Made by a program: the position numbers and the translations under genes | Shown here: positions 1,022-16,873 of the stretch, in pieces | How the letters are laid out: every line of letters starts with the position of its first letter | Position numbering within the stretch: position 1 is the first letter of the stretch | IMG/VR virus record: IMGVR_UViG_3300030021_000029 | Span: 1-16,873 of that record | Reading direction: 5' to 3' (one strand) | From: a virus | Taxonomy: Duplodnaviria; Heunggongvirae; Uroviricota; Caudoviricetes | DNA length: 16,873 nt | Notes under the pieces: model-generated | Told to the model about the DNA's origin: nothing | Database searches by the model: none | The model's input: the letters and a program-made list of their open reading frames with translations, nothing else

Positions 1022-1022
1022 T

Positions 1023-1535
1023 TCAGTTTGCTCCCTGTAAGCACCAGGCCATCTCCCGCGCACGGCGGTTATCCAGCCCCTGATTAAACACACCTTTTAC
1101 ATACACCCAGCGCGGCAACTGTCGGCACGCATCCGCCCAGCGCCGCTGATTGAGCAATTTCACCAGCGTGGAACTGCAGGCATTGCCCGTTCCCACGTTG
1201 AAGGCAAACGACACCACCGAGTCATACACCTTTTGCGGCGGCTGTTGCTTCACACACCTTTCCAGCGCCCGCTCCACACGTAGCACGTTGGAGATCAGCC
1301 CTTCCGCTGCCTGTCGTTCCGTAATGGTTTTTCCTGGAATGACACCTGATGTATTACCAATGCCGTCGGTCCAGACACCCGCGCTACACTGATACGGCTG
1401 CAGACGACAGCCTTCGTAATCGGCAATCAGTTTCAGCCCCTCCACGGAGGTGTGAAGTTGCTGAAAACCCGGTAGCGTGGCAGCAATAGCCAGCACGGCC
1501 CCGACAAGGCAGCGTTTAACGATTGATGGATTCAT
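1023..1535 (-). CDS. K: Endolysin, T4-lysozyme-like muramidase with N-terminal SAR (signal-anchor-release) domain
   Basis: 170 aa; GGGAGG SD; weakly hydrophobic Gly/Ala-rich N-terminus (KRCLVGAVLAIAATLPG) followed by EGLKLIADYEGCRLQPYQCSAGVWTDGIGNT, which matches the E-D-T catalytic region and Cys pattern I recall for P1 Lyz / phage 21 R SAR endolysins. Confidence 0.85.
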   Translation of the reverse strand: MNPSIVKRCLVGAVLAIAATLPGFQQLHTSVEGLKLIADYEGCRLQPYQCSAGVWTDGIGNTSGVIPGKTITERQAAEGLISNVLRVERALERCVKQQPPQKVYDSVVSFAFNVGTGNACSSTLVKLLNQRRWADACRQLPRWVYVKGVFNQGLDNRRAREMAWCLQGAN

Positions 1536-1731
1536 AGTCCTCCCGCGAGATCTGCCCGTCGCGCAGAAGCTGGTAGGCTTTGTGTTTGTAGTACCAGTTG
1601 ATAGCCAGCATCAGCACACCAATCATCAGGCCGCCCAGCGTTGAGGCATCCTTGATGGACAAATCGCCCAGCCAGGCCAGCACGACGGCGATGCAATACG
1701 TGATAAAGGCGCTGATTCGCTCAAGCGTCAT
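1516..1731 (-). CDS. Y: Class II holin (two TMDs), possible pinholin
   Basis: 71 aa; two hydrophobic helices and a charged C-terminal tail; immediately upstream of the endolysin. Confidence 0.7.
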   Translation of the reverse strand: MTLERISAFITYCIAVVLAWLGDLSIKDASTLGGLMIGVLMLAINWYYKHKAYQLLRDGQISREDYESINR

Positions 1732-1734
1732 AAT

Positions 1735-1938
1735 TCAGTCCCATAGCTGGACGGTCTGCACGGTGGTGGTGGTCGGAATGTCCGGCAGCTCCACCTGCAG
1801 CCCGTGAGGTAAAAAGGGGCCGTATTCGGCAAGCCCCGGATTTGCCTTCAGTACCTGCTCCGTGACACCCTGCGTGCGCCCGTAATGACGCCAGCAAAGC
1901 GCGTCCACCGTGTCATACTGATGCGCACGCACTTTCAT
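1735..1938 (-). CDS. X: Tail protein X (LysM-like)
   Basis: 67 aa, same length as P2 gpX; ATGA overlap with L stop; position between L and holin. Confidence 0.8.
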   Translation of the reverse strand: MKVRAHQYDTVDALCWRHYGRTQGVTEQVLKANPGLAEYGPFLPHGLQVELPDIPTTTTVQTVQLWD

Positions 1939-2402
1939 CAGATAAGCTCCACTGTGCAGTGCGGCGCATCCTGCACCCGGCTGATGGCCCAGCGGGCGTC
2001 ACGCCACAAATCACCGCTTGCTTCCGCCAGTTCCTCGCCCCGCTTCACACCGGACGCCGTGGCGTCATAGTCCTGGTAACGTTCGTTGAGCATGGCGCGT
2101 GCCCAGCAGTAAACCGCGTTGAAATAGTGCTGAATGCGCTCACTTTTGCCGTCCAGCTGTTCCGCCGGAACCTCAGCCAGCGACACATACCCCAGCATCT
2201 GCTGACGTCTGCGAAACTCATACAGCTCTGCGTTGACCTCCGAAATTGCCGACAGCGCAACCTGCTTTAAACGCGGCTGCGTCACCGTGCCGTCAGTGCG
2301 CATCACGCTGCGAAACTCCGACAGGTCCACATCAGGCCAGAACGGCGTATTCCTGATGATTTCCGCCTGTTCCGGTGCCTGTTCTGGCGCAACAAACTTC
2401 AT
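1938..2402 (-). CDS. L: Head completion/stabilisation protein gpL-like
   Basis: ATG at 2402 with AGGAG SD; the ORF track's start at 2465 is a GTG codon. Position after the small terminase gene. Confidence 0.7.
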   Translation of the reverse strand: MKFVAPEQAPEQAEIIRNTPFWPDVDLSEFRSVMRTDGTVTQPRLKQVALSAISEVNAELYEFRRRQQMLGYVSLAEVPAEQLDGKSERIQHYFNAVYCWARAMLNERYQDYDATASGVKRGEELAEASGDLWRDARWAISRVQDAPHCTVELI

Positions 2403-2497
2403 GCTGCTTTCTCCTGAAATAGAGGGCGGTGGACGAGGTTTTGATGTGGCAGTGCCTTTCGCCACCCCGTGCCGCCCGTGCGCGGGGGCACGTTCTG

Positions 2498-3148
2498 TCA
2501 GCGGCTGTCATTGCGCAGTCTGCGCTCCAGCTGCTGTTTGTCTTTTTTCACGCCACAGCGAGGATCGAGCTGTAACGCATGGTTGAGATGATTAAGGGCA
2601 GACGCCGGATTTCTTTCACTCAGGACAGCGCCAATCGCTTTATGCAGACGCGCCCGTGACTGGTCCGGCATATCCAGACCGTCTGTCAGCTCCAGCGTCT
2701 GCAGCAACAGATCGGCATCAAAGCCGGTGGCGGCAAGCATAGTGCTCTGCGCCGCGTCTGCCATTTCCTCTGCCAGCACGGTCTGCACGTTGCGGTTACC
2801 CAGCGGCATCACCCAGCCATGACGCAGGGCATGACGCCCGATCTCCAGCGCCCCTGCATAATCTCCGGCATCAATGCGCCACAGCATCACGTACATCAGC
2901 ACGTCATCCTGTTGAGCGCCTCCGGCAGCCAGAACGCCCTCCGCCCAGGCGGCATATTTCGGCAGCAGCTCCACCTTGATTTCTGCTTTTTTGACCGTGG
3001 ACTGAACGCCCTTGAGACGGCGGCGGTCTTCCGCCAGTTGCAGCAGCATCAGGTCATAGCCCGACGCGTGGCGAACACTGCCACCCTCGCGAGCGGCCTG
3101 TTCAGCCTGAACGCGCAGGCGATGCTGCCGTGCGGGACTCAGGCTCAT
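2498..3148 (-). CDS. M: Terminase small (endonuclease) subunit gpM-like
   Basis: 216 aa; position between capsid N and L as in P2; start 4 nt after N stop. Confidence 0.8.
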   Translation of the reverse strand: MSLSPARQHRLRVQAEQAAREGGSVRHASGYDLMLLQLAEDRRRLKGVQSTVKKAEIKVELLPKYAAWAEGVLAAGGAQQDDVLMYVMLWRIDAGDYAGALEIGRHALRHGWVMPLGNRNVQTVLAEEMADAAQSTMLAATGFDADLLLQTLELTDGLDMPDQSRARLHKAIGAVLSERNPASALNHLNHALQLDPRCGVKKDKQQLERRLRNDSR

Positions 3149-3151
3149 GAA

Positions 3152-4210
3152 TTACGCTCCGGTTTCTGCTGCGGCGGCGCTGAAGTCACCAATCTGGATG
3201 TTTTCCACCAGTGCAGCGCAGCGATAGTCCTCAACCACATAGGCTTCGTTAACGGATTCAAAATTTTCAATCCGGTCACGTTTCGGGTTGTCGATAACTG
3301 AACGGCGGCGGGTATCTTCCTGCCAGTAGATGGACAGGTTATCCAGACGGGTGATCAGCAGCGCATTCGGCGGGAAGAACGGCGCACGCACTGCCTGCAG
3401 GCCACCCATGCGTTTCTGACTGATGATCATATCGGCAGCCAGTTTTTCACTGTTTTCCTGCTCTTTGTTGACCAGCGGGAAATACTTGTCAGACAGCAGT
3501 TCACGACCGCAAATCACCACCAGATCGTCATCGTCCTGGTAGACCACATCGATAAGCTCATTGACGGCATCCATCACTACGGCGTCCAGGTTGGCATATT
3601 CGCCACCTTTCCCGACTTTCACCGCGCCCGGAGTGGTTTCACCGCCCGTGGTGGTGCTGCCCATGACGTGATCCGGTGCATCTTCACGGATTTTCTGCAG
3701 CCAGCCTTTGTTCACATCCTGCAGCAGCGGGTTTTCGCTACGGTTGGAGGTTTTCGCACGCTTCACGCCGTTAAAGCCGATCATGATGCGGTCCAGTGCC
3801 TGACGTTTTACGATGGCGTCACGGATACGCACCTGGAAATCCTGAAACTTCGCCCACAGGTCCAGCTTCGCGTAGGTCAGCACCGTGTCAAAGTTAGTCT
3901 GCTCGCATTTGTATTCCACATCGACCATTAGCGTCGGATCGACAGGCTCACGCTCTTTAGCTGTGGTATCAGTGGTTCCGGCAATGGTGCTGCCAACACC
4001 CAGCCCCAGCAACTGACCAGACTGCTCAGTCACTGGCGTGACGTTAATCAGCGTCAGGAATGCGGCGGACTGCTGGATCTGATCTTCCAGCGTCTGCTGC
4101 ACAGACGGCTCTACAGTGAACTTGCTGGACAGTTCTTCAACGGCCACACCGTTCAGACGCGCCAGCTGCTGCAGGTAAGCGTTAAAAGCAAAGCGGGTAT
4201 TCTTCTTCAT
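3152..4210 (-). CDS. N: Major capsid protein gpN-like
   Basis: 352 aa (P2 gpN is about 357 aa); follows scaffold gene; GC-rich phage codon usage. Confidence 0.9.
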   Translation of the reverse strand: MKKNTRFAFNAYLQQLARLNGVAVEELSSKFTVEPSVQQTLEDQIQQSAAFLTLINVTPVTEQSGQLLGLGVGSTIAGTTDTTAKEREPVDPTLMVDVEYKCEQTNFDTVLTYAKLDLWAKFQDFQVRIRDAIVKRQALDRIMIGFNGVKRAKTSNRSENPLLQDVNKGWLQKIREDAPDHVMGSTTTGGETTPGAVKVGKGGEYANLDAVVMDAVNELIDVVYQDDDDLVVICGRELLSDKYFPLVNKEQENSEKLAADMIISQKRMGGLQAVRAPFFPPNALLITRLDNLSIYWQEDTRRRSVIDNPKRDRIENFESVNEAYVVEDYRCAALVENIQIGDFSAAAAETGA

Positions 4211-4226
4211 CGGGTTTTGTGCTCCA

Positions 4227-5060
4227 TCAGCAATTGGTCAGAGTGTCAGCGGGGGCGTTACCGCCTGTTGCACGCTGGCGGTAGTCCTGGCGGCTGTCTT
4301 CATGACTCAGCTTATTCACCAGTTCGTTAAAGGCGGTCTGCTGTGCCTGCAGGGCAGTCTCCAGCTCAGACAGACGTTCTTCCTGCTCAGACAGGGATTT
4401 TTCGGTGCGTGCGCTCAGGTTTTGCTGCTCAGTGGCGACCAACTCCACGGCCTTATGCACATCAGAGAACCGGGCATCGTCGGACTGCTCTTTTTTGGTG
4501 AACAGTGCCGTGACGCGGGCAAACAGAGACGGCTTGTCCTCCTGGATTTCTTCCAGTTCGATCACCGTTTCCTCTGCGGCGGTAAAGAGATTGGCGGGAT
4601 TCTGCTTGCGGTTTGCCAGCGGGTTATGGGCTGCACTGGCGCTGAATGTCAGCATTTCAGTGCCCAGACTGGCAGGGTCATCAGTGGCAGCCAGGCCGAC
4701 CAGGTAGGCTTTGCCCGTATCAGCAAACTTCGGACTGACTTCCATAGATGTGAATAATTTCTGGCCTTTTTTCACCAGTTCCACCAGGGATTCCGTTGGC
4801 TCAACGTCGGCATACAGCGCCATCTTGCCTGCCAACGGACCTTCCGTGATTTCTTCAGCAAACAGCGCCGTCACCTTGCCGTAGCGGTTAAAGGTGCTGT
4901 CCGGCAGATAAGACTTGATGTGCTCAAGGTTAATCAGCGCGGTATACACCGCCGGGTTGTAGCTGGCTGCCATCTGTTCCAGCCATTCACGCTGGATTTC
5001 GCGTCCGTCGGTGGTGGCACCTTCCACCCCGATGCGAAAACGCTTTGCTTTCACTGTCAT
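4227..5060 (-). CDS. O: Capsid scaffolding protein gpO-like
   Basis: 277 aa; acidic, coiled-coil-rich C-terminal half; first gene of leftward late operon, divergent from P. Confidence 0.85.
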   Translation of the reverse strand: MTVKAKRFRIGVEGATTDGREIQREWLEQMAASYNPAVYTALINLEHIKSYLPDSTFNRYGKVTALFAEEITEGPLAGKMALYADVEPTESLVELVKKGQKLFTSMEVSPKFADTGKAYLVGLAATDDPASLGTEMLTFSASAAHNPLANRKQNPANLFTAAEETVIELEEIQEDKPSLFARVTALFTKKEQSDDARFSDVHKAVELVATEQQNLSARTEKSLSEQEERLSELETALQAQQTAFNELVNKLSHEDSRQDYRQRATGGNAPADTLTNC

Positions 5061-5202
5061 GAGCCGTGCTCCGTTAGAAAAAACTTACTGGAGCCTTATG
5101 GTTGCGGTGATGGGGGCAGTGAAACAATGCGCGGTATTTGTACCGACAACCACACAAACCGCAGGCGGGGAAAGCCTTCATTCAAGGCTGTAGGTTTGTG
5201 CC
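5061..5202. promoter_or_regulatory. Divergent late-promoter region between O and P (expected Ogr/B-activated promoters)
   Basis: 142-bp gap between divergently transcribed late operons; contains hairpin AGCCTT-cattc-AAGGCT at 5173..5189. Exact promoter elements not resolved by eye. Confidence 0.4.
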
Positions 5203-6969
5203 ATGAACACCACACTGACACCCGCAGATCTCGATCCCCGTCGGCAGGCCATGCTGCTGTACTTTCAGGGATACCGCGTCGCCCGCATTGCTGAAATGCT
5301 GGGCGAGAAAGTTGCAACTGTTCACAGCTGGAAAAAACGCGACAAGTGGGGTGACTATGGGCCGCTGGATCAGATGCAGCTCACCACCGCCGCACGCTAC
5401 TGCCAGCTCATTATGAAGGAGCACAAAGAAGGGAAAGATTTCAAAGAGATTGACCTGCTGGCGCGCCAGTCGGAGCGCCACGCGCGGATCGGCAAGTTTA
5501 ACAATGGCGGCAACGAAGCCGATTTAAACCCTAACGTCGCCAACCGCAACAAAGGCCCACGCCGTCAGCCGGAAAAGAATGTTTTCACCGATGAACAGAT
5601 TGAGAAGCTGGAAGAAATCTTCCATTCCTCCATGTTCAACTACCAGCGCCACTGGTGGGAAGCCGGAAAAACCAACCGCATCCGCAACCTGCTGAAGTCA
5701 CGCCAGATCGGCGCAACCTTCTATTTTGCCCGTGAAGCCCTGATTGACGCCCTGCTGACCGGACGTAACCAGATTTTCCTTTCCGCCAGCAAGGCACAGG
5801 CCCACGTCTTTAAGCAGTACATCTTCGACTTCGCCAAAGAAGTGGAGGTGGAGCTGAAAGGTGATCCGATGGTGCTTCCTAACGGTGCCACGCTTTACTT
5901 CCTCGGCACCAATGCCCGCACTGCCCAGAGTTATCACGGCAACCTGTATCTGGATGAATATTTCTGGATACCGAAATTTCAGGAGCTGCGTAAAGTGGCT
6001 TCCGGTATGGCTATTCACAAAAAATGGCGACAAACCTATTTTTCCACGCCATCAAGCCTGACCCACAGTGCTTATCCGTTCTGGTCCGGTGCGCTGTTCA
6101 ACCGTGGACGCAACAAAGCCGACAAGGTGGACATCGACCTGTCCCACAGCAATCTGGCCCCCGGCCTGCTGTGCGCAGACGGGCAATACCGCCAGATAGT
6201 CACCGTGGAAGATGCGGTGCGCGGCGGCTGCAACCTGTTCGACCTTGACCAGTTGCGCATGGAGTACAGCCCGGACGAATACCAGAACCTGCTGATGTGC
6301 GAGTTTGTGGACGATCTCGCGTCCGTGTTTCCGCTCAGCGAGCTGCAGGCGTGCATGGTGGACAGTTGGGAAGTCTGGACCGACTTTCATGCACTGGCCC
6401 TTCGCCCGTTTGGGTGGCGCGAAGTGTGGATCGGTTATGACCCGGCAAAAGGTACGCAGAACGGCGACAGCGCCGGATGCGTGGTGGTGGCACCGCCAGC
6501 CGTGCCGGGCGGTAAGTTCCGTATTCTTGAGCGCCACCAGTGGCGCGGGATGGACTTCCGCGCCCAGGCGGACGCCATCAAAAAACTGACCGAACAGTAC
6601 AACGTGACATATATCGGCATCGACTCGACGGGTGTCGGTCACGGGGTTTACGAGAACGTGAAAGCGTTTTTTCCTGCCGTCCGGGAGTTTGTCTACAACC
6701 CCAACGTTAAAAATGCCCTGGTACTCAAGGCATACGACATTATCAGCCACCGCCGTCTGGAGTTTGACGCCGGGCACACCGACATTGCGCAGTCATTCAT
6801 GGCAATCCGTCGCGCCACCACCGCCAGTGGCAACCGCCCGACCTATGAAGCCAGCCGCAGCGAAGAAGCCAGCCACGCCGATCTGGCCTGGGCAACGATG
6901 CACGCACTGTTTAATGAACCGCTGCAGGGCGAGTCCGCCAATACAAGCAATATTGTGGAGATTTTTTGA
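5203..6969 (+). CDS. P: Terminase large (ATPase) subunit gpP-like
   Basis: 588 aa (P2 gpP about 590 aa); overlaps portal start by TGATG. Confidence 0.9.
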   Translation: MNTTLTPADLDPRRQAMLLYFQGYRVARIAEMLGEKVATVHSWKKRDKWGDYGPLDQMQLTTAARYCQLIMKEHKEGKDFKEIDLLARQSERHARIGKFNNGGNEADLNPNVANRNKGPRRQPEKNVFTDEQIEKLEEIFHSSMFNYQRHWWEAGKTNRIRNLLKSRQIGATFYFAREALIDALLTGRNQIFLSASKAQAHVFKQYIFDFAKEVEVELKGDPMVLPNGATLYFLGTNARTAQSYHGNLYLDEYFWIPKFQELRKVASGMAIHKKWRQTYFSTPSSLTHSAYPFWSGALFNRGRNKADKVDIDLSHSNLAPGLLCADGQYRQIVTVEDAVRGGCNLFDLDQLRMEYSPDEYQNLLMCEFVDDLASVFPLSELQACMVDSWEVWTDFHALALRPFGWREVWIGYDPAKGTQNGDSAGCVVVAPPAVPGGKFRILERHQWRGMDFRAQADAIKKLTEQYNVTYIGIDSTGVGHGVYENVKAFFPAVREFVYNPNVKNALVLKAYDIISHRRLEFDAGHTDIAQSFMAIRRATTASGNRPTYEASRSEEASHADLAWATMHALFNEPLQGESANTSNIVEIF

Positions 6970-8015
6970 TGGGAAAGAGTAAGAAAAACCGCGCTGCGGC
7001 GATGAATCACATCCAGCATAAAAGCCAGACTTCAGCCGAAGCATTCAGCTTCGGCGATCCCGTTCCTGTTCTGGACCGCCGAGAATTACTGGACTATGTG
7101 GAATGCGTACAGATGGACCGTTGGTATGAGCCGCCCGTCAGCTTTGACGGACTGGCGCGCACCTTCCGCGCCGCCGTGCATCACAGTTCCCCGATTGCAG
7201 TAAAGTGCAACATTCTGACCAGTACCTATATCCCTCATCCGCTGCTCAGCCAGCAGGCTTTTTCGCGTTTTGTGCAGGACTATCTGGTATTTGGTAACGC
7301 CTACCTGGAGAAACGCACGAACCGCTTCGGTGAAGTTATCGCCCTTGAACCGACCCTGGCAAAATACACCCGACGCGGATTAGACCTGGATACCTACTGG
7401 TTTGTGCAATACGGCATGACTACGCAGCCGTATCAGTTCACGAAAGGCAGCATTTTTCATCTGATGGAACCGGACATCAACCAGGAGATCTACGGCCTGC
7501 CCGGTTATCTTTCTGCCATTCCGTCAGCCCTGCTCAACGAGTCCGCCACGCTGTTCCGCCGCAAGTATTACATTAACGGCAGTCATGCAGGCTTCATCAT
7601 GTACATGACCGATGCAGCGCAGAACCAGGAGGATGTGAACAACCTCCGCAATGCGATGAAAAGCGCCAAAGGTCCTGGTAACTTCCGTAACCTGTTTATG
7701 TACTCGCCTAACGGTAAAAAGGACGGGCTTCAGATTATCCCGTTGTCAGAAGTGGCGGCGAAGGATGAGTTCCTGAATATCAAGAACGTGAGCCGGGACG
7801 ACATGATGGCGGCGCATCGTGTGCCGCCACAAATGATGGGGATAATGCCTAATAATGTCGGGGGGTTTGGGGATGTAGAAAAGGCAAGCCGTGTCTTTGT
7901 CCGCAACGAGTTGATACCTCTGCAGAAACGCCTACAGGAACTTAACAACTGGCTGGGCGATGAAGTTATACGTTTCGAGCCGTACACTTTAGATATTCAG
8001 AATGAAAAGAAATAA
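6969..8015 (+). CDS. Q: Portal protein gpQ-like
   Basis: 348 aa from ATG at 6969 (the track's 6966 start is TTG); directly downstream of terminase. Confidence 0.9.
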   Translation: MGKSKKNRAAAMNHIQHKSQTSAEAFSFGDPVPVLDRRELLDYVECVQMDRWYEPPVSFDGLARTFRAAVHHSSPIAVKCNILTSTYIPHPLLSQQAFSRFVQDYLVFGNAYLEKRTNRFGEVIALEPTLAKYTRRGLDLDTYWFVQYGMTTQPYQFTKGSIFHLMEPDINQEIYGLPGYLSAIPSALLNESATLFRRKYYINGSHAGFIMYMTDAAQNQEDVNNLRNAMKSAKGPGNFRNLFMYSPNGKKDGLQIIPLSEVAAKDEFLNIKNVSRDDMMAAHRVPPQMMGIMPNNVGGFGDVEKASRVFVRNELIPLQKRLQELNNWLGDEVIRFEPYTLDIQNEKK

Positions 8016-8043
8016 AAGTTAGCGAATAAAAATCATTAGCATA

Positions 8044-8062
8044 GGCCGCAAACTGAGCGGCC
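8044..8062. terminator. Bidirectional stem-loop terminator between convergent Q and the 89-aa gene
   Basis: GGCCGC-aaactga-GCGGCC hairpin, T-rich on the plus side (TTATTCATT) and U-rich on the minus side. Confidence 0.5.
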
Positions 8063-8069
8063 TTATTCA

Positions 8070-8339
8070 TTACCAATTTCTTTTTTCGGAGTTTAGCCAA
8101 TCACCGCATGGATAATATCTTGACGCCCATTCACCTTGTAAACGAGCTACAAACAGAATATCGTTACTATCGACCCTGGCTTGGAGTCCGTCACGCAGTT
8201 GAGTTGCGGTCAGCGTTGTATCTACTAACCAAAATGATTCAAGATATTTACAGTATGTAAATTGCTTTAGATAGTCAAAAACTTCATCGTAGTTTCTTCC
8301 CGGAGCCTTCAAGTCATAGGTTATACAATAAATAGCCAT
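8070..8339 (-). CDS. Hypothetical 89-aa protein, second gene of AT-rich two-gene cassette
   Basis: ATG at 8339, 3 nt after the upstream gene's TAG with GGAG inside that gene's 3' end (translational coupling); clearly AT-rich versus flanking phage genes; no family recognised. Confidence 0.55.
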   Translation of the reverse strand: MAIYCITYDLKAPGRNYDEVFDYLKQFTYCKYLESFWLVDTTLTATQLRDGLQARVDSNDILFVARLQGEWASRYYPCGDWLNSEKRNW

Positions 8340-8342
8340 TCT

Positions 8343-8525
8343 CTAAGCTCCGCATTTTTTATCATTTGGGGAACATCTTAACCTGCGACATTTGCGGCAA
8401 TACGATTGAGGGATCAGCCGCTCTCCTTCCATAGTTCTAAAACCAAACACTTCTTCAATTTTGTTCAAATCACCACTTGCAATAACCCCACAGCAGGGGC
8501 AGACAGCCTCAATTTGAAATGCCAT
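8343..8525 (-). CDS. Hypothetical small zinc-ribbon protein, first gene of AT-rich cassette
   Basis: Track ORF 8343..8588 starts at a TTG; ATG at 8525 has GGAG 8 nt upstream (alternative ATG at 8537). Cys pattern CPCC...(about 30 aa)...CRKC suggests a four-Cys zinc ribbon. Confidence 0.5.
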   Translation of the reverse strand: MAFQIEAVCPCCGVIASGDLNKIEEVFGFRTMEGERLIPQSYCRKCRRLRCSPNDKKCGA

Positions 8526-8624
8526 GTCTATCTCCATTCCACATGTTGAATGTAGGGTAATACTTCCTTTCAAGCAAAAATGAGACAAGGATCTTGAAAC
8601 CTAATTTAAACTTGCTTGCGCGCG

Positions 8625-8643
8625 CTCGTATCCCCGCCACGCC
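8625..8643. other. Candidate cos (cohesive end) site
   Basis: Reverse complement reads GGCGTGGCGGGGATACGAG; the first 13 nt equal the 186 cohesive-end sequence as I recall it (GGCGTGGCGGGGAAAGCAT). Located between replication gene A and portal Q, where cos lies in P2/186. Confidence 0.5.
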
Positions 8644-8685
8644 TGCCCGCTTTATGTAGTGGTTTTCATGCACCTGCATGATCTA

Positions 8686-8712
8686 CGCAAAAGCCCGCCA
8701 GTTCTGGCGGGC
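8686..8712 (-). terminator. Rho-independent terminator for the LexA-regulated DinI-like operon
   Basis: GCCCGCCAG-tt-CTGGCGGGC perfect inverted repeat, followed on the minus strand by TTTTGCG. Confidence 0.45.
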
Positions 8713-8847
8713 CTTAGCAAAAACGATCCTCAAACGATCATGCGATCTCATGCGGCATAGACATGCACTACAGAGCTAACGCCTCGCAAGGGCTCGTTGT
8801 TCAACCTTGCTGACGCCAGAAGCAAGTTCAGACGCCAGCAACGTTTC

Positions 8848-9081
8848 TTAATGCAGCCAGCTGTCGTCTTCCCACACCTTCTGCATAATTTTCATCACTT
8901 GTTTTCTTTCTTCGTCCAGTTGCAGTCCGGTTAGTTCCACCCCGTTAGAGCTACCTTTGCGAATGCGAATTACCGTTTTGGGATACAGGGGGCGCAGATT
9001 GCGGTAAAGCTCGGATTCAAGGGCGTCCAGGGTAGACTGGCTAATCTTCTGCTCTTTATCGATCATTATTTCAATGCGCAT
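8848..9081 (-). CDS. DinI-family protein
   Basis: 77 aa from ATG at 9081 (GAGGTG SD); MRIEIMIDKEQ...ALESEL...KIMQKVWEDDSWLH resembles E. coli DinI in length and pattern. Confidence 0.8.
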   Translation of the reverse strand: MRIEIMIDKEQKISQSTLDALESELYRNLRPLYPKTVIRIRKGSSNGVELTGLQLDEERKQVMKIMQKVWEDDSWLH

Positions 9082-9091
9082 AAAAGTCACC

Positions 9092-9280
9092 TCAGCTGAT
9101 GACATCCATTGAGCGGTTGTATTCGTGGGTTCTGATTTTTGCCATGAGTTCATCAGTCAATTCAGAAACCCACTGCAGAGCCAGCCCCTTCTCTTCATCA
9201 CTACACTCACTAGCCGCTACAAGCTTAAGAAAAAAATCAATGCGCTGGAGCTTCAAAGACTCCAAAAAATAGTCCTGCAT
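9092..9280 (-). CDS. Small hypothetical protein, first gene of SOS operon (possible Tum-like antirepressor)
   Basis: 62 aa from ATG at 9280 with strong AGGAGG SD; LexA boxes just upstream; function inferred only from the 186 tum locus position. Confidence 0.55.
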   Translation of the reverse strand: MQDYFLESLKLQRIDFFLKLVAASECSDEEKGLALQWVSELTDELMAKIRTHEYNRSMDVIS

Positions 9281-9307
9281 CTTTCCTCCTATGACACCAC
9301 ACGCAAT

Positions 9308-9341
9308 ACTGTATGTATAACCACTGTTTATATTTACAGTA
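9308..9341. promoter_or_regulatory. Tandem overlapping LexA (SOS) boxes in promoter of the DinI-like operon
   Basis: taCTGtatgtataacCAC (9307..9324, one mismatch to CTG-N10-CAG) overlapping aCTGtttatatttaCAGta (9323..9341); minus-strand -35 TTTACA and -10 TATACT candidates are adjacent. Confidence 0.65.
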
Positions 9342-9433
9342 TATAATAATCTTACTGATGTAAAACGTTTTTTTACGTTCATCAGCCTGATATGCCAGGT
9401 ATTATTAAGAGCACGAATTGTTAACCCGCGTAA

Positions 9434-11848
9434 TTAATACAGGTTCCGCCACTGATCATCTTCCTGCAAACGCTGGTTCCGATAGAAGATACGCAGGCCT
9501 GCTCCTGACGGAATACTGCCGCCGCGAAGGAGTAAATCGACCTCTTTCTCGCTGCCATCAAATCCTCTGGACTTCAGCTCATACACGAGCTGCAGTCGCT
9601 GATGGTCTGTAATTCGCTGTTTGTAGTCTTTACGCCGTTTCGGTTTCACCAGGCGTAACCTTGCTGCCAGTTCCCGGCGCTCTTTATTGCTCATACTGTG
9701 CAGGTAATCGTGCAACTCCTTGTCATCCATGCTGGTAATGTCCGTTCTGGGGTCCCCATCAGCTGATTTATCTTTCTCCTGTTGGTTCAAATTTTCAGCA
9801 AGGGGACAGTTATTGCCACGAGTCCAAGGGGCGCAAGCGCCCTGGTCGGCTGCCGCCTCCTGAACGTCAACGGCTTTACGAACCATTTTCCACTTCACTG
9901 CATGAGTGCAGATCTTGCCCTCTGCAATGGGTGACCAGATGCCATAAATACGAATGCCGTGATCGCCATAGGCGGTCGGCTCTTCGTTGATTTCATAAGC
10001 GGTTCTGATGAGGTGATATTTACGGGGAACCAGTACGCCGCCCTGCTTCATGATGTAGGTGGCAAAACAACCAGCATCAGCAGCAGCCAGAATGGCATCA
10101 AGACGCGGGTTATCCAGTACCGGCGCACCTGCTTTTTTGTCACCCTGTTGCCTTGCCGCCTGACCAGCCAGCAAGCGAAGTTCACGGTAAGCCTGACGCC
10201 CCGGAATACCAAAGAAGCGGAATTGCTGAACACGATGCAGAGACGCCCAGGCATTCACGTATTCAGCGTTATCACGCAGAGATTTACCCGTTTCCTTGCT
10301 GATCTCGCCAGCCAGACCACGCCCGTCAATGTTCTTACTGATATATTTCGCGATGTAGCTTGTCGGCGTTCCTTTGCGCGGGTTAATCAACTCAGACTTA
10401 AAGCGCGGCCCAGTGTTATTGCCCAGCTCCTCGCGGTCTTCACGGATGGCAAACTTACGCAGTAATGCAGTGATGGCACGGCGGTCTTTTTTGCGCATGA
10501 AACACAACAGGTGCCAGTGAACTGTGCCATCATGATGCGGCTCAGCCACCCGCACGCCATACCAGCGCAACCCAGCTTTGTGCATCGCCTTACGAAATGC
10601 AGCAAACATGCCGACCAGATAATCGCTGCTTTGTCTTACCGTCGCGTTTGTCCAGGTCGGGTTTGGTCTGCCGTTATTTAGCGTGGAATGGAAACGCGAC
10701 GGACAGGTGATAGTGTAGAAAACGGCGCAGTCACCGCGCATTTCCGCGATAAGCTCCAGACCTTTAACACAGGCCATCATCTCATTGCGGCGATGCGCAG
10801 GGTTGCTGCTGCTGGCGTTTACCACATCCTCCATGTCCAGCGTGTCGCCGTCTTCGTTCACCAGTTCATGAGAACGGAAAAACTCCAGCGACTTACGGCG
10901 CTGCTCACGTTTATGCATCACGGCTTCATAGCTGACATAAGGAGATGCTTTTTTGCTGACCAGGCAAACAGCGCGCAACTGCTCTTCCCGCCATTCGCAA
11001 CGCATCTTCCATAATTTCCGATACCACCAGTCGGCGCACAACATACGCGCCAGCGAACCCGGAATGAGTTCATAGGGCACGGGTTTACGGCGGTTTCTTT
11101 TCCGACGGAGTTGCTCAAACGCAGGTGGGATGACATCCAGACGCAGGGTTTCCGCTGCCACCTTTTCCCATGTCTTGCGGATTTCTTCTGGCTTAACGTC
11201 ATCGGTGGCATACAAATCACCACAAGCTGCATCAAGGCACATACTCATATGCGCAGCTACCAGGGTGGACAGGCGTTTCACCTGATCCTGACTCATTTCA
11301 GGCAGGATCAGCAGGCCGTCCAGCCCTTCATGGCTTGCCATAAAGCGAAAAGATGCAGATAGCTGACTGTCGCGTACATGCTCCAGTCGTTCCAGACATG
11401 GCTTAATCGTCTCACGTAAATAGCGGGAATAAGCCTTTGGCCTGCCCAGGCTGCTGAAGTATTCAATACGTTGCATCAGCGGCTTGCTGATATGGGAAGG
11501 CTGGGCGTTGACGTCCGCCAGAATGACCATGTCTGAATTAAAACGCTGCTGCTCATGCGCCAGCTTTGCCCGGCTAATGAGCTTATCCTGCTCCATTTCG
11601 CGCTGGACAGGATCACGTGATTCATTAAAGAAATAACGCTCCCAGACCTGATCACTCAGTGCCTCGCGGCGCAACTGTTCCTGTTCGTTATCGGCAGCGT
11701 ACAGAGTGATCAGGTTTGAAAGCGTAGAAACCGGCGCAACTTCCGCCGGGTCCAGATAAGGGTTAATGGCCTTTTTCGGGCTGTTCCATGAGAACGCTGC
11801 GGCAGCCTCGTTAAAGCCGCAGCAGTTGTTCATATCGGCATGACTCAT
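9434..11848 (-). CDS. A: Replication initiation protein gpA (rolling-circle HUH endonuclease)
   Basis: 804 aa; HUH-like motif (VHWHLL) and tyrosine pair ([12 protein letters not shown]) typical of phiX174/P2 A-type initiators. Confidence 0.9.
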
Positions 11849-12702
11849 GCACGTACTCCGTACACGGCAGAACTATCCACGCCACGCGAATAATCAAATC
11901 CCATCCAGCAGCGCGGTCCGGAAACAGCAATGATTTCTGTTGCTGATTTACCCTCGCCAGCTGCCACACCGATGCTGCGTTTTACCTTGATATAGTGGTG
12001 AGTAAAATTGCGATACAGCGAACGGATCAGGGATGTGTCACTGTTAGAAACAATGACCGGATGTCCTTCTGATGACCGATGTTCAAGAACGGATGCCAGG
12101 TGATACTGGTCATCTTCAGTGAAACCATCAGTGTGATAGCCGGAAAACGTACCGTCATATGGCGGATCGCAATACACCACATCTCCCGCCTTCAACATCG
12201 CCAGCGTTTCATCAAAGCTGGCGCAGATAAACGTTGCTCGCTGGGCTTTTTCTGCAAATGTGCGAAGTTCTTTTTCAGGGAAATACGGATTTTTATAATT
12301 ACCGTAGGGAATGTTGAAATGCCCGCTCTTGTTATAGCGACATAAACCACGGTAACCGTGACGATTGAGATACAGGAAATATACCGCTTTCATGAAATCA
12401 GTAATTTCAGTTGAGCAGTTAAACTCCTGCCTTATGTTGTAATAAGCCACCTCCCTGTTTGCGATCTCAAATAAAACTCTGGCGCGAGATATAAACGATT
12501 CACAATCAGCGGCAACCTTTTTATAGAGGTTGATTAAATCAGGATTAATATCCGCAACCAGATAGCTGGGATAATCCGTTTCCATCATCACAGCACAGGA
12601 ACCCGCGAAAGGTTCAACCAGTCGCGGGCCAGCAGGAAGGTATTTTTTCAGTTCTGGCATAATGGCGGTTTTATTTCCCGCCCATTTCAGGATAGTGCTC
12701 AT
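11845..12702 (-). CDS. dam: DNA adenine methyltransferase (Dam-like, N6-adenine)
   Basis: 285 aa from ATG at 12702 (GGAGGTG SD; ATGA overlap with upstream stop); ILKWAGNK...VEPFAGS and DPPY motifs; collinear similarity to E. coli Dam (from memory). Confidence 0.85.
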
Positions 12703-12926
12703 ACAGCACCTCCGTTGTAATGTTTGCCTTTCAGTTCTGCGATTTCCTGACAGGTAATGCAAAGCTGCACTCCCGGAATGGCGCGGCGTCGTGCTGGCGG
12801 AATTGGCGCTTCACATTCAATGCAAAGTACGCGTGACACGCCCGGTGATTTGGCACGGGCTGCACGGATATGGCGCTGGCGTTCTTCTTCAACGCGCTGC
12901 TGTACAAGATCCATTGCATCAGCCAT
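12699..12926 (-). CDS. TraR/DksA-family C4 zinc-finger protein
   Basis: 75 aa; C-x2-C...C-x2-C (CIECEAP...LCITCQE). Confidence 0.7.
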   Translation of the reverse strand: MADAMDLVQQRVEEERQRHIRAARAKSPGVSRVLCIECEAPIPPARRRAIPGVQLCITCQEIAELKGKHYNGGAV

Positions 12927-13159
12927 TAGTGGATCTCCTGCGCTTCGTTCTGGATTGCTTCAGCAGTCACGCGCAGCAGTTCTGCCGCTTCCACGTGGTT
13001 TAGCTGGCGGGATGAGATATGACACGCCAGGCTATCAAGGCGAGCAGCCATTGCTTCAGCCCTTGCCCGGCGTTCTTCCAGACGAGCCTCTGTCAGTAAA
13101 ATATTAAGCCCTGCGTCATCCGGTCCGGTTTTAGTCGTGAGGGTTTCAATATTACGCAT
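12926..13159 (-). CDS. Hypothetical early protein
   Basis: 77 aa from ATG at 13159 with AGGAG SD (the track's 13165 start is TTG); Ala/Arg-rich, helical. Confidence 0.55.
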   Translation of the reverse strand: MRNIETLTTKTGPDDAGLNILLTEARLEERRARAEAMAARLDSLACHISSRQLNHVEAAELLRVTAEAIQNEAQEIH

Positions 13160-13226
13160 AATCAATTCTCCTGAATTTAGATAAAGGGATGCCCGGCGGG
13201 TTTACGCCATTAATTTCATTAGTTGG

Positions 13227-13568
13227 TTAATTCGGCATGGTTAGCCGTCTGGGAAATAAGCTCACCACTGCACGAAAATGATTCATTGCTTTAATCAGCT
13301 CCCGCTTTTCGTCAGTGGTCAGCTCATTAATGCTGATGCTATGACGTTCAGCTGGAATTTTTGCCATAAAGAATATGGCAGCCAGTGCCCGTTTATTTTG
13401 TTCGCTATTAATATCGCGTGGATCACGCATATCTTTAATAAACCGCTCAAGCTCTGACTCAATATTCAGACCAAAAACTTTCGCCCTTAACTCCGCAATG
13501 TGATTAAGTCCATTCAGGCGTTCACCGGGGCTTAATGGAACAGTCGCCGCAGCGCCATTAATTGCCAT
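13227..13568 (-). CDS. Hypothetical early protein
   Basis: 113 aa; ATG with GGGGA upstream; in the early rightward operon. Confidence 0.55.
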   Translation of the reverse strand: MAINGAAATVPLSPGERLNGLNHIAELRAKVFGLNIESELERFIKDMRDPRDINSEQNKRALAAIFFMAKIPAERHSISINELTTDEKRELIKAMNHFRAVVSLFPRRLTMPN

Positions 13569-13590
13569 AATTCATATCCCCAAAACGCAA

Positions 13591-13815
13591 CTATCGTTCT
13601 TTGTCCTTACGGTAACGTTCAAGAGGAGATACATTTTTTCGTATCGTCTCTTTAACCTGCTCTCCCCGTAAAAACGTCCCATCCTTTAGCGTGAAAAAGT
13701 AACTGCCATCGCCCGACAACGACGGATAACAACAGAGCAAATCATCTTCAGGTACTGAATAACTCTCCCCTCTGTAACGAAACTGATAAACCACTTCACT
13801 TTCCGCTGCATACAT
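13591..13815 (-). CDS. Hypothetical early protein (74 aa)
   Basis: ATG at 13815, GGAG upstream; protein-like composition; overlaps next ORF in a different frame. Confidence 0.5.
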   Translation of the reverse strand: MYAAESEVVYQFRYRGESYSVPEDDLLCCYPSLSGDGSYFFTLKDGTFLRGEQVKETIRKNVSPLERYRKDKER

Positions 13816-13982
13816 TTTGACTTTCTCCGTTTCCTCGTGGTCAATTCAGACAACAATTCATCTTGTGAATGACATGGATGCCAGCGTTTTCCATCCTCAC
13901 CCATGATCCAGCCGTGACCGTAGTGCATTGCCGGACTTTGCTTTACCAGCAGCGATGCAAATGATGGTTCTTTCGTCAGCAT
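13686..13982 (-). CDS. Hypothetical early protein, extent uncertain
   Basis: ATG at 13982 with GAGGTG SD just after cII; its 3' 130 nt overlap ORF 13591..13815 out of frame and translate to low-quality sequence. Confidence 0.3.
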   Translation of the reverse strand: MLTKEPSFASLLVKQSPAMHYGHGWIMGEDGKRWHPCHSQDELLSELTTRKRRKSKCMQRKVKWFISFVTEGRVIQYLKMICSVVIRRCRAMAVTFSR

Positions 13983-13989
13983 AAGCACC

Positions 13990-14499
13990 TCACAGCAAAC
14001 CGAATGAAGCACCGAGGCCAGTCACGGTATCAACTGCACTCGCCATCGCAGGGTTAGCCTGTAAACGGGCCTGCAATGAAACAGCAGCCAACGCCATCAG
14101 TCGTGTTACAGAGTTAATGCTGCTGATAGCATCACGACGACCTGCACTGGTTTTTACATCGCCAGATACCGCACCTGCAGCAACACGCCCGATCTCTGCG
14201 GTTGCACTCATGACGTAATGTGGCAGTTTCTCTTTTGCCACCTCATTAATCGGTACGCATGGCAGGCAGTGAATCTGAGCCAGAAAACCATCTACCAGCG
14301 TTGAATCTTCAGTCAGATCGGTAAGCAGCCAGATTTCTGGTGCGGTTAATAAATGAGGTTGAGCTGGGTTCAGCTTGTTCCGCAGAATCTGCACATTCAT
14401 GCCAGCACGTTCTGCCAGTTGCACCAGGTTGTGGCGCAATGCGAATGCACGACAGGCTTCATCAAAATGTGGATGTTTGGAAACTTGGTAATCAAACAT
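13990..14499 (-). CDS. cII: CII-like lysogeny-establishment regulator (phage 186 type)
   Basis: 169 aa from ATG at 14499 (track start 14505 is TTG); N-terminus [19 protein letters not shown] matches my recollection of 186 CII; follows apl. Confidence 0.8.
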
Positions 14500-14531
14500 G
14501 GTCAATGCCTCTGATGTATCTCAGAATCGAA

Positions 14532-14753
14532 CTAATTAAGGTTTAGATTGCATTCTGAAAGCGCATCAACGGTCATTGCTGCTATGTTGATCATCACTTT
14601 TTCGCGTTTTTTATCTTTGCGCAGACGGTGACGGATAAGGCGTCCATCAGCCAACATGTCATTGATGGTATCGATGGATAGCCCTGTCAGCTCGCTATAG
14701 CGTTCAATAGTCACATGAGGCGTGGTAAGAGTGATTGAAATGTTAGGTCTCAT
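14532..14753 (-). CDS. apl: Apl/Cox-like excisionase and lytic-promoter repressor
   Basis: 73 aa; HTH-like ([21 protein letters not shown]); first gene of the early lytic operon, divergent from cI. Confidence 0.7.
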
Positions 14754-14825
14754 GATGCAACATTCCTCGTTTAATGATGATTAATCAGGACGAATACGGA
14801 TCGTTTGTATTTTGTGAACACCATA

Positions 14826-14854
14826 AACATACGATCGCACATTGAAATCGTCAA
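14826..14854 (-). promoter_or_regulatory. Candidate early lytic promoter (pR-like) for apl-cII
   Basis: Minus strand reads TTGACG - 17 nt - TATGTT; sits near the cI start and points toward apl. Confidence 0.45.
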
Positions 14855-14878
14855 GATAAAAGTTCACTTGGAGTGACC

Positions 14879-15448
14879 ATGAATTTGGAGAAAGGCGGAC
14901 GAGGCGCTATAGAGCGCATGGTAGAAGCTTATGGATTCAAGACTCGACAGGCGTTGTGCGATCATTTAGGAATCTCTAAAAGTACACTCGCCACACGCTA
15001 CATGCGTGACTCATTCCCAGCAGAATGGGTAATCCAGTGCGCCCTTGAAACAGGCACCTCGCTTAATTGGCTCACAACCGGGCATGGTTCAAAGCAAACT
15101 TCAGGTAATACAAATACTATGGAAGTTGCTAAATATGTATTATCTGATGGTGCCTTGCGTGAAGACGGTTTTTATATTTTTGATAAGGGATTTCTACCCT
15201 CTACGTTTAAAAAACCTTTTGTCATCACAGATAACAATTCTGAATTTATTTGTGATAAAGAATTTGATGATATACGTGATGGTAAATGGGTAATAAGTAT
15301 TGATGGCGAAATAACAATCCGCGACATTACTCGTTTACCCGGTGGAAGAATCTTCGTTGAAGGTGGAAACAGAGCCTTCGAGTGCAAGATAGAAGATGTT
15401 GAAATAATTGGAAAAATTATAAGTTTAACAATTAAGTACGTTAGGTAA
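14879..15448 (+). CDS. cI: CI-like immunity repressor (186 type, HTH N-terminal domain)
   Basis: 189 aa from ATG at 14879 (GGAG SD; the track's 14873 start is GTG); HTH (TRQALCDHLGISKSTLATRYM); size fits 186 CI (about 192 aa), not P2 C (99 aa). Confidence 0.75.
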   Translation: MNLEKGGRGAIERMVEAYGFKTRQALCDHLGISKSTLATRYMRDSFPAEWVIQCALETGTSLNWLTTGHGSKQTSGNTNTMEVAKYVLSDGALREDGFYIFDKGFLPSTFKKPFVITDNNSEFICDKEFDDIRDGKWVISIDGEITIRDITRLPGGRIFVEGGNRAFECKIEDVEIIGKIISLTIKYVR

Positions 15449-15463
15449 TACCGGGAGGAAACT

Positions 15464-15655
15464 ATGCTTGGTAAGGTATTTTTTGTGGTTTTATCATGCT
15501 CTTTGTTATTAAACCCACTAACTACCTATGCTAAAAATTATCCTTGTTCTGGGAAAAAAGGAGGTGTCTCTCACTGTACCTCCGATGGAAAGTTCGTTTG
15601 CAATGATGGAACTATTAGTAAATCAAAAAAAATCTGTACTAAAAACTCGCGATAA
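15464..15655 (+). CDS. Small secreted Cys-rich protein (moron)
   Basis: 63 aa; strong GGGAGGA SD; N-terminal signal peptide ([19 protein letters not shown]), mature about 40 aa with 4 Cys and many Lys; AT-rich. Confidence 0.55.
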
Positions 15656-15788
15656 ATTTTGCTTTTATATCTGCGCCTAATATAACAATGAGCCGCAGGC
15701 TAACCGCAAAAGTCACATGCTCACATAGCAAAAAATAGCCAACTTCATTATGGCTTCAGTGAGATGTATGGTCACAGGATTTCATACA

Positions 15789-15817
15789 TTGACACTGGTT
15801 ATACATACAGTAAAAAT
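15789..15817 (+). promoter_or_regulatory. Candidate LexA-repressed promoter upstream of int
   Basis: Perfect -35 TTGACA (15789..15794), 16-17 nt spacer holding a full CTG-N10-CAG LexA box (15795..15810), weak -10 (TAAAAA/AAAAAT), then GGAGG and int ATG at 15842. Confidence 0.4.
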
Positions 15818-15841
15818 GCTCTCCACTGGAGGGCATTTTTT

Positions 15842-16873
15842 ATGGCAGTACGAAAACTCACCACAGGAAAATGGCTTTGCGAATGTTACCCCGCCGGACG
15901 TAGTGGGCGTCGTGTGCGTAAACAATTCGCCACCAAAGGTGAAGCTCTGGCTTTTGAGCGTCACACGATGGAAGAAACCGAAGCAAAGCCCTGGCTGGGT
16001 GAATCAGTGGATCGTCGAACACTGAAAGACGTGGTTGAGCTATGGTTCAAACTACATGGTAAATCTCTGACAGCTGGGCAGCATGTCTATGACAAATTGC
16101 TGTTGATAGTTGACGCTCTGGGCAATCCCCTTGCAACCGATCTCACCTCTAAAATGTTTGCCCACTATCGAGATAAACGCCTAACAGGAGAGATCTACTT
16201 CAGCGAGAAATGGAAGAAAGGAGCAAGCCCGGTCACCATTAACCTGGAGCAAAGCTATCTAAGTAGTGTTTTTAGCGAACTATCCCGCCTGGGCGAATGG
16301 TCGTATCCAAACCCACTGGAGAACATGCGAAAATTCACCATCGCAGAAAAAGAGATGGCATGGCTTACCCATGAGCAGATTGTTGAACTGCTGGCTGATT
16401 GCAAACGTCAGGACCCAATTCTGGCTCTGGTAGTCAAAATATGCTTAAGCACAGGCGCACGCTGGCGAGAAGCCGTAAATCTTACCCGCTCACAGGTGAC
16501 CAAATACCGAATTACCTTTGTAAGAACGAAGGGGAAGAAAAACAGAAGCATCCCTATCAGTAAAGAGCTTTACGAAGAGATCATGGCGCTTGATGGGTTC
16601 AATTTCTTTACAGACTGCTATTTTCAATTTTTATCCGTGATGGAAAAAACGTCTATCGTGCTCCCTCGCGGTCAACTGACACACGTTCTGCGCCATACGT
16701 TTGCGGCGCACTTCATGATGTCGGGTGGAAATATCCTGGCCTTACAAAAAATTCTCGGGCATCACGATATAAAAATGACTATGCGTTACGCACATCTGGC
16801 ACCGGATCACCTGGAAACTGCATTACGGTTTAATCCGCTGGCAACACTACCAACATCAATAGCAAGTTTTTGA
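15842..16873 (+). CDS. int: Tyrosine integrase (P2/186 family)
   Basis: 343 aa from ATG at 15842 (MAVRKLTTGKWLCECYPAGRSGRRVRKQF); C-terminal LRHTFAAH...HHDIKMTMRYAHL recombinase motifs; stop is the last codon in the window. Confidence 0.85.
   Translation: MAVRKLTTGKWLCECYPAGRSGRRVRKQFATKGEALAFERHTMEETEAKPWLGESVDRRTLKDVVELWFKLHGKSLTAGQHVYDKLLLIVDALGNPLATDLTSKMFAHYRDKRLTGEIYFSEKWKKGASPVTINLEQSYLSSVFSELSRLGEWSYPNPLENMRKFTIAEKEMAWLTHEQIVELLADCKRQDPILALVVKICLSTGARWREAVNLTRSQVTKYRITFVRTKGKKNRSIPISKELYEEIMALDGFNFFTDCYFQFLSVMEKTSIVLPRGQLTHVLRHTFAAHFMMSGGNILALQKILGHHDIKMTMRYAHLAPDHLETALRFNPLATLPTSIASF

Follow-up and report, generated by a model that had tools for sequence, protein, structure and literature searches.

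The YdcA-family gene behind cI

The DNA analysed here, 16,873 nucleotides (nt) of a Caudoviricetes virus (IMG/VR record IMGVR_UViG_3300030021_000029, positions 1 to 16,873; hereafter the window), is the early and regulatory half, together with some of the head genes, of an Escherichia coli P2/186-like (Peduoviridae) prophage, and approximately 900 complete E. coli genomes contain at least 80% of it at 90–99% identity. The subject of this report is a small open reading frame (ORF) on the + strand that lies between the repressor gene cI and the integrase gene int and encodes a putative exported protein of 63 amino acids belonging to the YdcA family. At this locus, 15 nt separate cI from the ORF, and a spacer of 186 nt follows before int; the − strand, divergent from cI, carries apl/cox-like, cII, fil and more early genes. 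The cI gene (14879..15448, +) encodes a 186-type repressor (Pfam Phage_CI_repr, E 3e-33; Phage_CI_C, E 2e-28), labelled “phage repressor protein CI” by RefSeq on identical DNA; its start is taken as ATG 14879 by RefSeq, an ORF finder proposes GTG 14873, and its stop codon TAA is read at 15446–15448. The ORF (15464..15655, +) starts with ATG and ends with the stop codon TAA at 15653..15655, and it is preceded by a Shine-Dalgarno (SD) sequence, GGGAGGA (15453..15459, +), in which the distance from GGAGG to ATG is an ideal 5 nt. The int gene (15842..16873, +) encodes a tyrosine integrase, as recognized by Pfam Int_N and Phage_integrase, by phrog_1 and by the RefSeq name “phage integrase”.

The ORF has a guanine plus cytosine (GC) fraction of approximately 0.33–0.36, compared with 0.45–0.52 for int, although the low-GC tract already starts within cI and extends over positions ~15065–15824 (GC 0.33–0.39), covering the 3′ half of cI, the ORF and the spacer. 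Homology to the int modules of Klebsiella phages starts at ~15764–15784, where this tract ends. Since the tract spans both genes, its extent suggests that the 3′ portion of cI and the ORF form one travelling module.

The predicted product starts with a signal peptide of residues 1–23 (15464..15532, +), as judged by a rule-based reading of hydropathy and the −3/−1 rule. It consists of the n-region MLGK, a hydrophobic core of 12 residues (V5–L16; 9-residue Kyte-Doolittle mean up to 2.7) and the c-region NPLTTYA, in which T occupies −3 and A occupies −1, and is a Sec-type leader for which cleavage by signal peptidase I is predicted at A23|K24. The resulting mature peptide (KNYPC...NSR; 15533..15652, +, the mature YdcA domain by its match to the family model NF007463) has 40 residues, including 8 Lys, 1 Arg, 2 Asp and 4 Cys (C28, C38, C46 and C58), with a calculated isoelectric point (pI) of 9.6 and a mass of 4.26 kDa. 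The four Cys probably form two disulfides, and an AlphaFold2 (AF2) model built from a 45-sequence alignment has a small beta-rich core, with a predicted local distance difference test (pLDDT) score of 84–91 across residues 31–60. The signal peptide contains one further Cys, C12, which is missing from other lineages. A lipoprotein is ruled out: the only Cys of the leader, at position 12 (VLSC), is located far ahead of the end of the hydrophobic core, and the leaders of other lineages contain no Cys, have A-x-A-like ends and share no conserved lipobox. An initial annotation, made from the DNA sequence alone, had described an AT-rich ORF with a strong SD, a signal peptide and four Cys in a Lys-rich mature part of about 40 residues, and each of these features is borne out.

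The family name, which was absent from the initial annotation, was recognized in this analysis. The protein exceeds the cutoff of the curated hidden Markov model (HMM) NCBIfam NF007463 (PRK10040.1-2; 116.1 bits, cutoff 93), matching model positions 1–58 of 58, and it matches phrog_6000 with an E value of 4.6e-34. It also has the arrangement characteristic of the family, i.e., a signal peptide followed by PCSGxKGG[IV]xxC-x(6-8)-C-x(10-12)-C. RefSeq names the identical protein, WP_001321204.1, “YdcA family protein”, and Pfam PF27300 “YdcA” is precomputed on a cluster representative of 97% identity (P0001); a Pfam-A scan of the ORF itself, with a release older than PF27300, gave no significant match. 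On these matches the product is classified as a YdcA family member (PF27300/NF007463/phrog_6000) that is already catalogued and not new. The name “Conjugal transfer protein” attached to a UniRef cluster was rejected, as the plasmid matches are named “hypothetical protein” and their own names hold no conjugation annotation.

The cluster containing the ORF comprises 355 member sequences from more than 1000 contigs. The prophage-type gene is present at ≥80% DNA identity in ~641 of 5426 complete E. coli genomes (12%), and the ORF is intact in ~640 complete genomes, yet no enterobacterial isolate phage in the phage collection carries it, a gap for which isolation bias or poor prophage inducibility are possible explanations. 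A profile search of 1.84 billion representative proteins yielded 444 YdcA clusters, the proteins of which are mostly 55–130 residues long, with the domain starting 25–30 residues from the N-terminus. Chromosomal and plasmid copies outside phages occur in Gamma-, Beta- and Alphaproteobacteria, including ydcA of E. coli K-12. The K-12 protein likewise has a signal peptide followed by a basic four-Cys domain of ~35 residues (PCSGxKGG[IV]SHC...F[VI]CxDGxxSxSKK.C). However, the model of the chromosomal type, NF007462, gives the window protein 68 bits against a cutoff of 118, and its best model is that of the phage-type subfamily, NF007463; the two genes share ~74% DNA identity over ~100 nt, and ydcA occupies a chromosomal locus, whereas the window gene lies in a prophage directly behind cI. 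Apart from a phenotype of the chromosomal ydcA, literature searches found no functional study of the family.

The codon comparisons point to strong constraint on the mature domain. Relative to the window, two E. coli alleles (~92% DNA identity) differ by 12 synonymous and only 1–2 non-synonymous codon changes, the latter affecting either the leader or the first residue of the mature part. Across lineages whose CI is 35–43% identical to that of the window, the 32-residue core P27–C58 retains 94–97% protein identity, while synonymous sites are saturated (proportion of synonymous differences, pS, 0.82–0.92; of non-synonymous differences, pN, 0.013–0.034) and the signal peptides are unrelated in sequence. 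In all lineages the leader is hydrophobic, unrelated and ends in an A-x-A-like sequence, and the domain follows some 25–30 residues in. The residues P27, C28, S29, K32, G33, G34, C38, F44, C46, G49, S52, S54, K55 and C58 are invariant or nearly so; alignments A1–A3 put C28, C38, C46, C58, G33, G34, F44, G49, S52, S54 and K55 at 90% conservation or higher, up to invariance. Recent horizontal spread as the cause of the near-identical mature peptides is ruled out because the synonymous sites are saturated. By its pattern of codon substitution the ORF is thus a real gene under extreme purifying selection, and the combination of a free-running leader and a frozen mature domain reads as the signature of a strongly constrained exported protein. 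Conservation, on which the initial annotation had let its proposal depend, is strong.

Linkage to the repressor and the cI-int slot

The order CI-YdcA-(other cargo)-Int was found in at least six diverged P2-like prophage lineages, in which CI is 25–43% identical to that of the window. It occurs in the L201 group (CI 43% and Int 53% identical to those of the window), in the Yersinia-like lineages L224, L140 and L150 (CI 25–35% identical) and likewise in the L219 group, and in E. coli and Klebsiella prophages with other cI alleles YdcA is followed by a KAP NTPase. In the Haemophilus phages HP2 and S2, a 60-codon YdcA gene, unannotated in GenBank, overlaps the stop codon of cI.

The interval is variable in content. 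In phage vB_EcoM-813R9 it is occupied instead by the gene for a 558-residue ATPase that matches PD-Lambda-1 (E 3e-120), the KAP NTPase found beside YdcA matches the candidate system PDC-S20 (E 1e-171), and the slot of HP2 also contains the secreted orf1(S). Loci with PD-Lambda-1 or KAP NTPase (PDC-S20) cargo in this slot are L003 1822–3498, L009 2712–4043 and L010 5198–6529. As the interval holds differing cargo in relatives, ydcA is regarded as cargo rather than a core phage gene. The comparison with cI-int intervals of related prophages, which the initial annotation had proposed as a check, therefore agrees with its description of the ORF as a moron: YdcA recurs, and the slot otherwise holds other cargo. 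Because relatives carry PD-Lambda-1 or PDC-S20 at this position, the interval from cI to int behaves as a small defence hotspot in 186-type prophages of E. coli and Klebsiella. A cI-int defence hotspot is described for K139-like Vibrio phages (Rousset et al., 2022; PMC9122126), a 2026 survey lists for P2 just a minor hotspot “between integrase and primase”, and the passages of a paper on P2-like regulatory regions that a term search returned (PMC3448106) mention no gene between cI and int.

Two P2-like remnants, L002 13645–18402 (E. coli D97-1) and L012, have lost most of their late genes, while apl-cI-ydcA-int is intact, and L012 also retains the KAP NTPase. These remnants fit a scenario in which the immunity and cargo module remains under selection once the phage itself is dead. 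In Moraxella, whether in the chromosome or in a Mcat-type phage, the gene located 8–15 nt behind YdcA encodes a homologous membrane protein with one membrane pass and a coiled-coil-like region (L253 4186–4884, L188 4189–4827, L004 4126–4578), and the pair may constitute a lineage-specific two-gene module. A conserved downstream partner gene was rejected for the family as a whole, as this arrangement is confined to Moraxella and the neighbours in HP2 (orf1(S)), Chromobacterium and others are unrelated; the window has no equivalent of the Moraxella partner gene.

The placement of the ORF bears on its expression. No terminator-like element lies between cI and the ORF, the 15-nt gap being too short for one. 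The lysogenic operon of phage 186 expresses CI and Int in the direction from cI to int (PMC8538670), and the K139 GenBank record gives PL, followed by cI, orf2, glo and int. In view of the short spacing, the missing terminator and the direction of the 186 and K139 operons, ydcA is very likely co-transcribed with cI in the lysogen, in line with the expression in the lysogen that the initial annotation had deduced from position. The same annotation had placed the ORF in a transcription unit running from cI to int; its junction with cI stands, whereas the continuation into int is in doubt, since a hairpin may end the transcript before int.

This 13-bp hairpin (15812..15840, +), identified with RNAfold, has a folding energy (dG) of −19.2 kcal/mol and a z score of −5.95, and none of 200 shuffled sequences was equally stable. 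An A-run and a U-run border it, in the manner of a bidirectional intrinsic terminator, it ends 1 nt ahead of the int ATG, and its 3′ arm buries the int SD, GGAGGG (15828–15833, +). In two diverged E. coli alleles, a C-to-U change in the left arm retains the pairing as G-U. An Rfam scan of 14300–16873 at E ≤ 1 gave no match. Judged by its sequence, the hairpin has the look of an intrinsic terminator, a block to translation or both. A promoter-like site before int (15789..15817, +), found by a consensus scan with 10 of 12 matches, consists of TTGACA, a 17-nt spacer and AAAAAT, the −10 hexamer overlapping the left arm of the hairpin; such sites are no more numerous in this region than in shuffled sequences, so that it constitutes a lead only. 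Speculatively, a transcript started from this site, inside the left arm, would escape the hairpin. The arrangement suggests that int is shut off on read-through from cI-ydcA and translatable from the proximal promoter. Given the terminator-like hairpin between the ORF and int, the maintenance transcript may be cI-ydcA rather than cI-ydcA-int, in which case ydcA, not int, would be the lysogenic partner of cI.

Structural relatives and domain architectures

The sole relative with a solved structure is Dis2 (Lpg0823) of Dot/Icm, a Legionella type IV secretion system (T4SS; PDB 7MUC/7MUD, chain AN). Homology was detected in sequence, by phmmer (E 3e-5) and by a profile search (E 5e-4), and in fold, as the best Foldseek hit (probability 0.99; 38% identity across 39 columns), and each lobe of Dis2 matches the YdcA family. 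Dis2 is encoded by a chromosomal gene, consists of two similar lobes with five disulfides, is located near the outer membrane and is dispensable (PMC8486379, PMC12716638). It contacts DotK, DotC and DotD at the periphery of the outer-membrane complex (PMC12716638), and both papers describe it as Legionella-specific and without homologues (PMC8486379, PMC12716638). Dis2 and the window protein are alike in being exported disulfide-stapled mini-domains. However, Dis2 has two tandem lobes and five disulfides and belongs to a Dot/Icm-type T4SS, whereas the protein of the window has just one lobe, with four Cys, and neither the window nor the identical E. coli locus contains T4SS genes, only prophage genes being present. 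For these reasons the window protein is a homologous domain and not a Dis2 orthologue. Among other structural candidates, PDB sequence matches to plant proteinase inhibitors and lectins (E 0.2–6) and Foldseek matches to TFIIB zinc ribbons (probability ≤0.06) were dismissed as noise.

The YdcA domain also occurs as an N-terminal module, positioned directly after the signal peptide, in secreted nucleases of several unrelated folds (entries P0197, P0176, P0205, P0127, P0200 and P0224, and P0318–P0436). All 120 of the 120 best clusters around P0197 combine PF27300 with the Endonuclease_NS domain PF01223 (e.g., in Methylobacter), fusions to SNase and PLDc_2 have one representative each, and P0224 has a weak HNH-like match that falls below threshold (E 0.009; 16.5 bits, cutoff 21.4). 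In the Methylobacter “DNA/RNA non-specific endonuclease”, PF27300 stands directly behind the signal peptide, as in the window protein, but as a module of an enzyme of ~300 residues, whereas the window domain stands alone without a catalytic partner. Other family members carry two or three tandem copies of the domain or pair it with the basic PBCV_basic_adap motif, and one is fused to a VasL-type domain of the type VI secretion system (T6SS). Across the family the core is positively charged, with a mean net charge of +3.4 and a positive value in 186 of 194 cores. Literature searches found no discussion of the YdcA-nuclease architecture.

Small exported prophage proteins that act at the envelope, as superinfection-exclusion factors or other morons, include Llp of T5, Cor of phi80 and N15, and Bor and Lom of lambda. 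Ltp of TP-J34 is described, in passages of PMC3952083, as a lipoprotein-type exclusion factor at the envelope. All of these are lipoproteins or membrane proteins, whereas the window protein lacks the lipobox Cys at the end of the signal peptide that a lipoprotein exclusion factor would have, and no homology was detected between it and proteins of the Llp, Cor, Ltp, Bor or Lom type. A positional parallel is Glo of the Vibrio cholerae phage K139 (Peduoviridae), which carries a signal peptide, is soluble in the periplasm and is annotated as taking part in phage exclusion (K139 GenBank record; passages of PMC3952083). Like glo, the window ORF belongs to the lysogenic operon of a P2-related phage and fills the interval from cI to int. 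In contrast to the window protein, Glo has 137 residues, is not Cys-rich and has an exclusion phenotype documented in these sources. Homology is ruled out, since an hhalign comparison of Glo with the YdcA profile gave a probability of 4.3%, with the signal peptides alone aligned; Glo is therefore a positional and compartmental analogue of YdcA only.

Possible functions of the exported domain

The mature peptide is nearly identical in Escherichia, Yersinia, Haemophilus, Moraxella and Acinetobacter, and because these hosts are very different, a ligand that does not vary with the host is inferred. Together with this invariance, the cationic core and the nuclease fusions argue for a polyanionic ligand, DNA being the most economical guess. 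There is good support for the view that ydcA is transcribed with cI from the lysogenic promoter and hence expressed at all times in the lysogen, and that its product passes into the periplasm, loses residues 1–23 by cleavage behind A23 and forms two disulfides. In the mechanism that we favour, the mature domain would then bind an invariant polyanionic ligand in the cell envelope, most likely DNA or, alternatively, a phosphate-rich envelope lipid or lipopolysaccharide (LPS), in which case it would be an anchoring module. Free periplasmic YdcA would thereby alter what passes the envelope of the lysogen, and the most plausible benefit to the prophage would be interference with incoming foreign DNA, whether from a superinfecting phage or taken up by conjugation or transformation. 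We put forward this mechanism as a whole, a lysogen-made periplasmic binder of polyanions (probably DNA) that alters passage through the envelope, tentatively and at less than even chances; the specific reading that it excludes DNA entry is doubtful. Superinfection exclusion, one of the roles suggested by the initial annotation, is plausible by analogy with K139 Glo and in view of the nature of the slot.

Several observations weigh against this mechanism. While crossing the periplasm, phage DNA is normally shielded by a conduit and may thus be out of reach of a free DNA-binding protein. Dis2, a dispensable structural subunit at the periphery of the Dot/Icm outer-membrane cap, contacts lipoproteins near the outer membrane and not DNA, and the nuclease fusions could equally mean that the domain anchors enzymes to the envelope rather than binds DNA. 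No family in PADLOC-DB v2 matched the ORF at E ≤ 0.01. Among 140 isolate phages with a 186-type CI, a YdcA gene was found only in three Haemophilus HP2/S2 records and in none of the 137 phages from outside Haemophilus. In Moraxella and Acinetobacter siphophages, YdcA is located among late structural genes, outside the lysogeny module, its neighbours there being a HicB-like moron together with a tail assembly chaperone, or else an exonuclease on one side and a late activator on the other. Moreover, the phenotype of the chromosomal ydcA, as given in passages of PMC7642389, points to envelope or stress physiology and not to exclusion.

That phenotype underlies another reading, in which the protein is an envelope or stress-fitness factor that makes the lysogen more tolerant of envelope stresses such as acid and organic acid and has no anti-phage or DNA-related role. 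Within the family, a phenotype is on record for the chromosomal ydcA alone: according to passages of PMC7642389, its deletion in E. coli W renders growth sensitive to 300 mM 3-hydroxypropionate, and its expression is reportedly acid-induced via YdcI. The commonness of the family outside phages, on chromosomes and plasmids, and the frequency of other envelope proteins among the neighbouring cargo genes also fit this reading. However, the phenotype comes from a single study in which a second mutation suppressed it, and the passages of that study (PMC7642389) do not exclude polar effects on the adjacent rydC. The nuclease fusions and the retention of the gene in a slot that otherwise holds defence or exclusion genes are left unexplained, and since E. 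coli already has a chromosomal copy, a second would add little unless differently regulated; we consider a stress role rather unlikely. The relationship to Dis2, which sits peripherally on an outer-membrane complex, raises instead the prospect of a docking subunit that binds a conserved outer-membrane machine from the periplasm and modifies or blocks it, with a secretin, a pilus or secretion system, OmpA-/Pal-like proteins or a phage receptor as candidate targets, and the VasL-type T6SS fusion and the membrane-anchored partner encoded behind YdcA in Moraxella lineages point the same way. Co-evolution with a host protein surface would not, however, be expected to leave the mature peptide near-invariant across hosts, Dis2, a tandem duplicate that carries additional Cys, is highly diverged from YdcA, and no partner gene occurs in the window, so that this function seems improbable.

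The initial annotation had also offered a toxin-like peptide, and a small cationic mature peptide of 40 residues with four Cys does resemble a defensin-like antimicrobial directed against competitors or host cells, as does, without significance, the weak similarity to Cys-rich plant proteinase inhibitors (E 0.2–2). Sec export by itself would leave such a peptide in the periplasm, and relatives serve as tandem repeats, as N-terminal domains of nucleases and as a structural subunit of a secretion system; the suggestion is thus unsupported, and a toxin is very unlikely. Finally, ORFs of 63 codons are frequent by chance in AT-rich DNA, and the ORF could in principle be such a product or a decaying hitchhiker without function. 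The curated HMM cutoff that it passes, the 444 representative clusters, the extreme purifying selection at saturated synonymous sites and its integrity in ~640 complete E. coli genomes argue otherwise; the selection comparisons effectively refute this explanation, the probability of which is negligible.

As a sequence feature, the gene is ordinary, being annotated and present in about one-eighth of complete E. coli genomes. What is newly found is its context, namely the recurrent placement between cI and int, the contrast between saturated synonymous sites and a frozen core, the cargo of the slot, the homology to Dis2 and the use of the domain as a nuclease module. The mix of properties is rare for a prophage gene, as it combines constitutive co-expression with the repressor, inferred from position, and a fixed spot in a slot for defence or exclusion genes with retention while the repressors diverged to 25–43% identity and with a 32-residue core that is near-absolute in its conservation despite the saturation of synonymous sites. 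The homology to Dis2 matters since the literature treats that protein as a Legionella-specific orphan. Repressor linkage, constraint, Dis2 homology and nuclease fusions make this gene a tractable candidate for the first functional study of YdcA, and a 40-residue mature peptide encoded by a single gene makes cheap experiments feasible. At its broadest, the YdcA domain might be an unrecognised periplasmic mini-fold for binding DNA or other polyanions that tethers secreted nucleases, serves in duplicated form as Dis2 on a DNA-capable T4SS and is spread as a free, repressor-linked domain by temperate phages of many Proteobacteria to intercept DNA arriving in the periplasm; this is a long shot, but, if true, it would add a new class of exclusion protein, acting on superinfection, transformation or conjugation, that is functionally convergent with Glo of K139.

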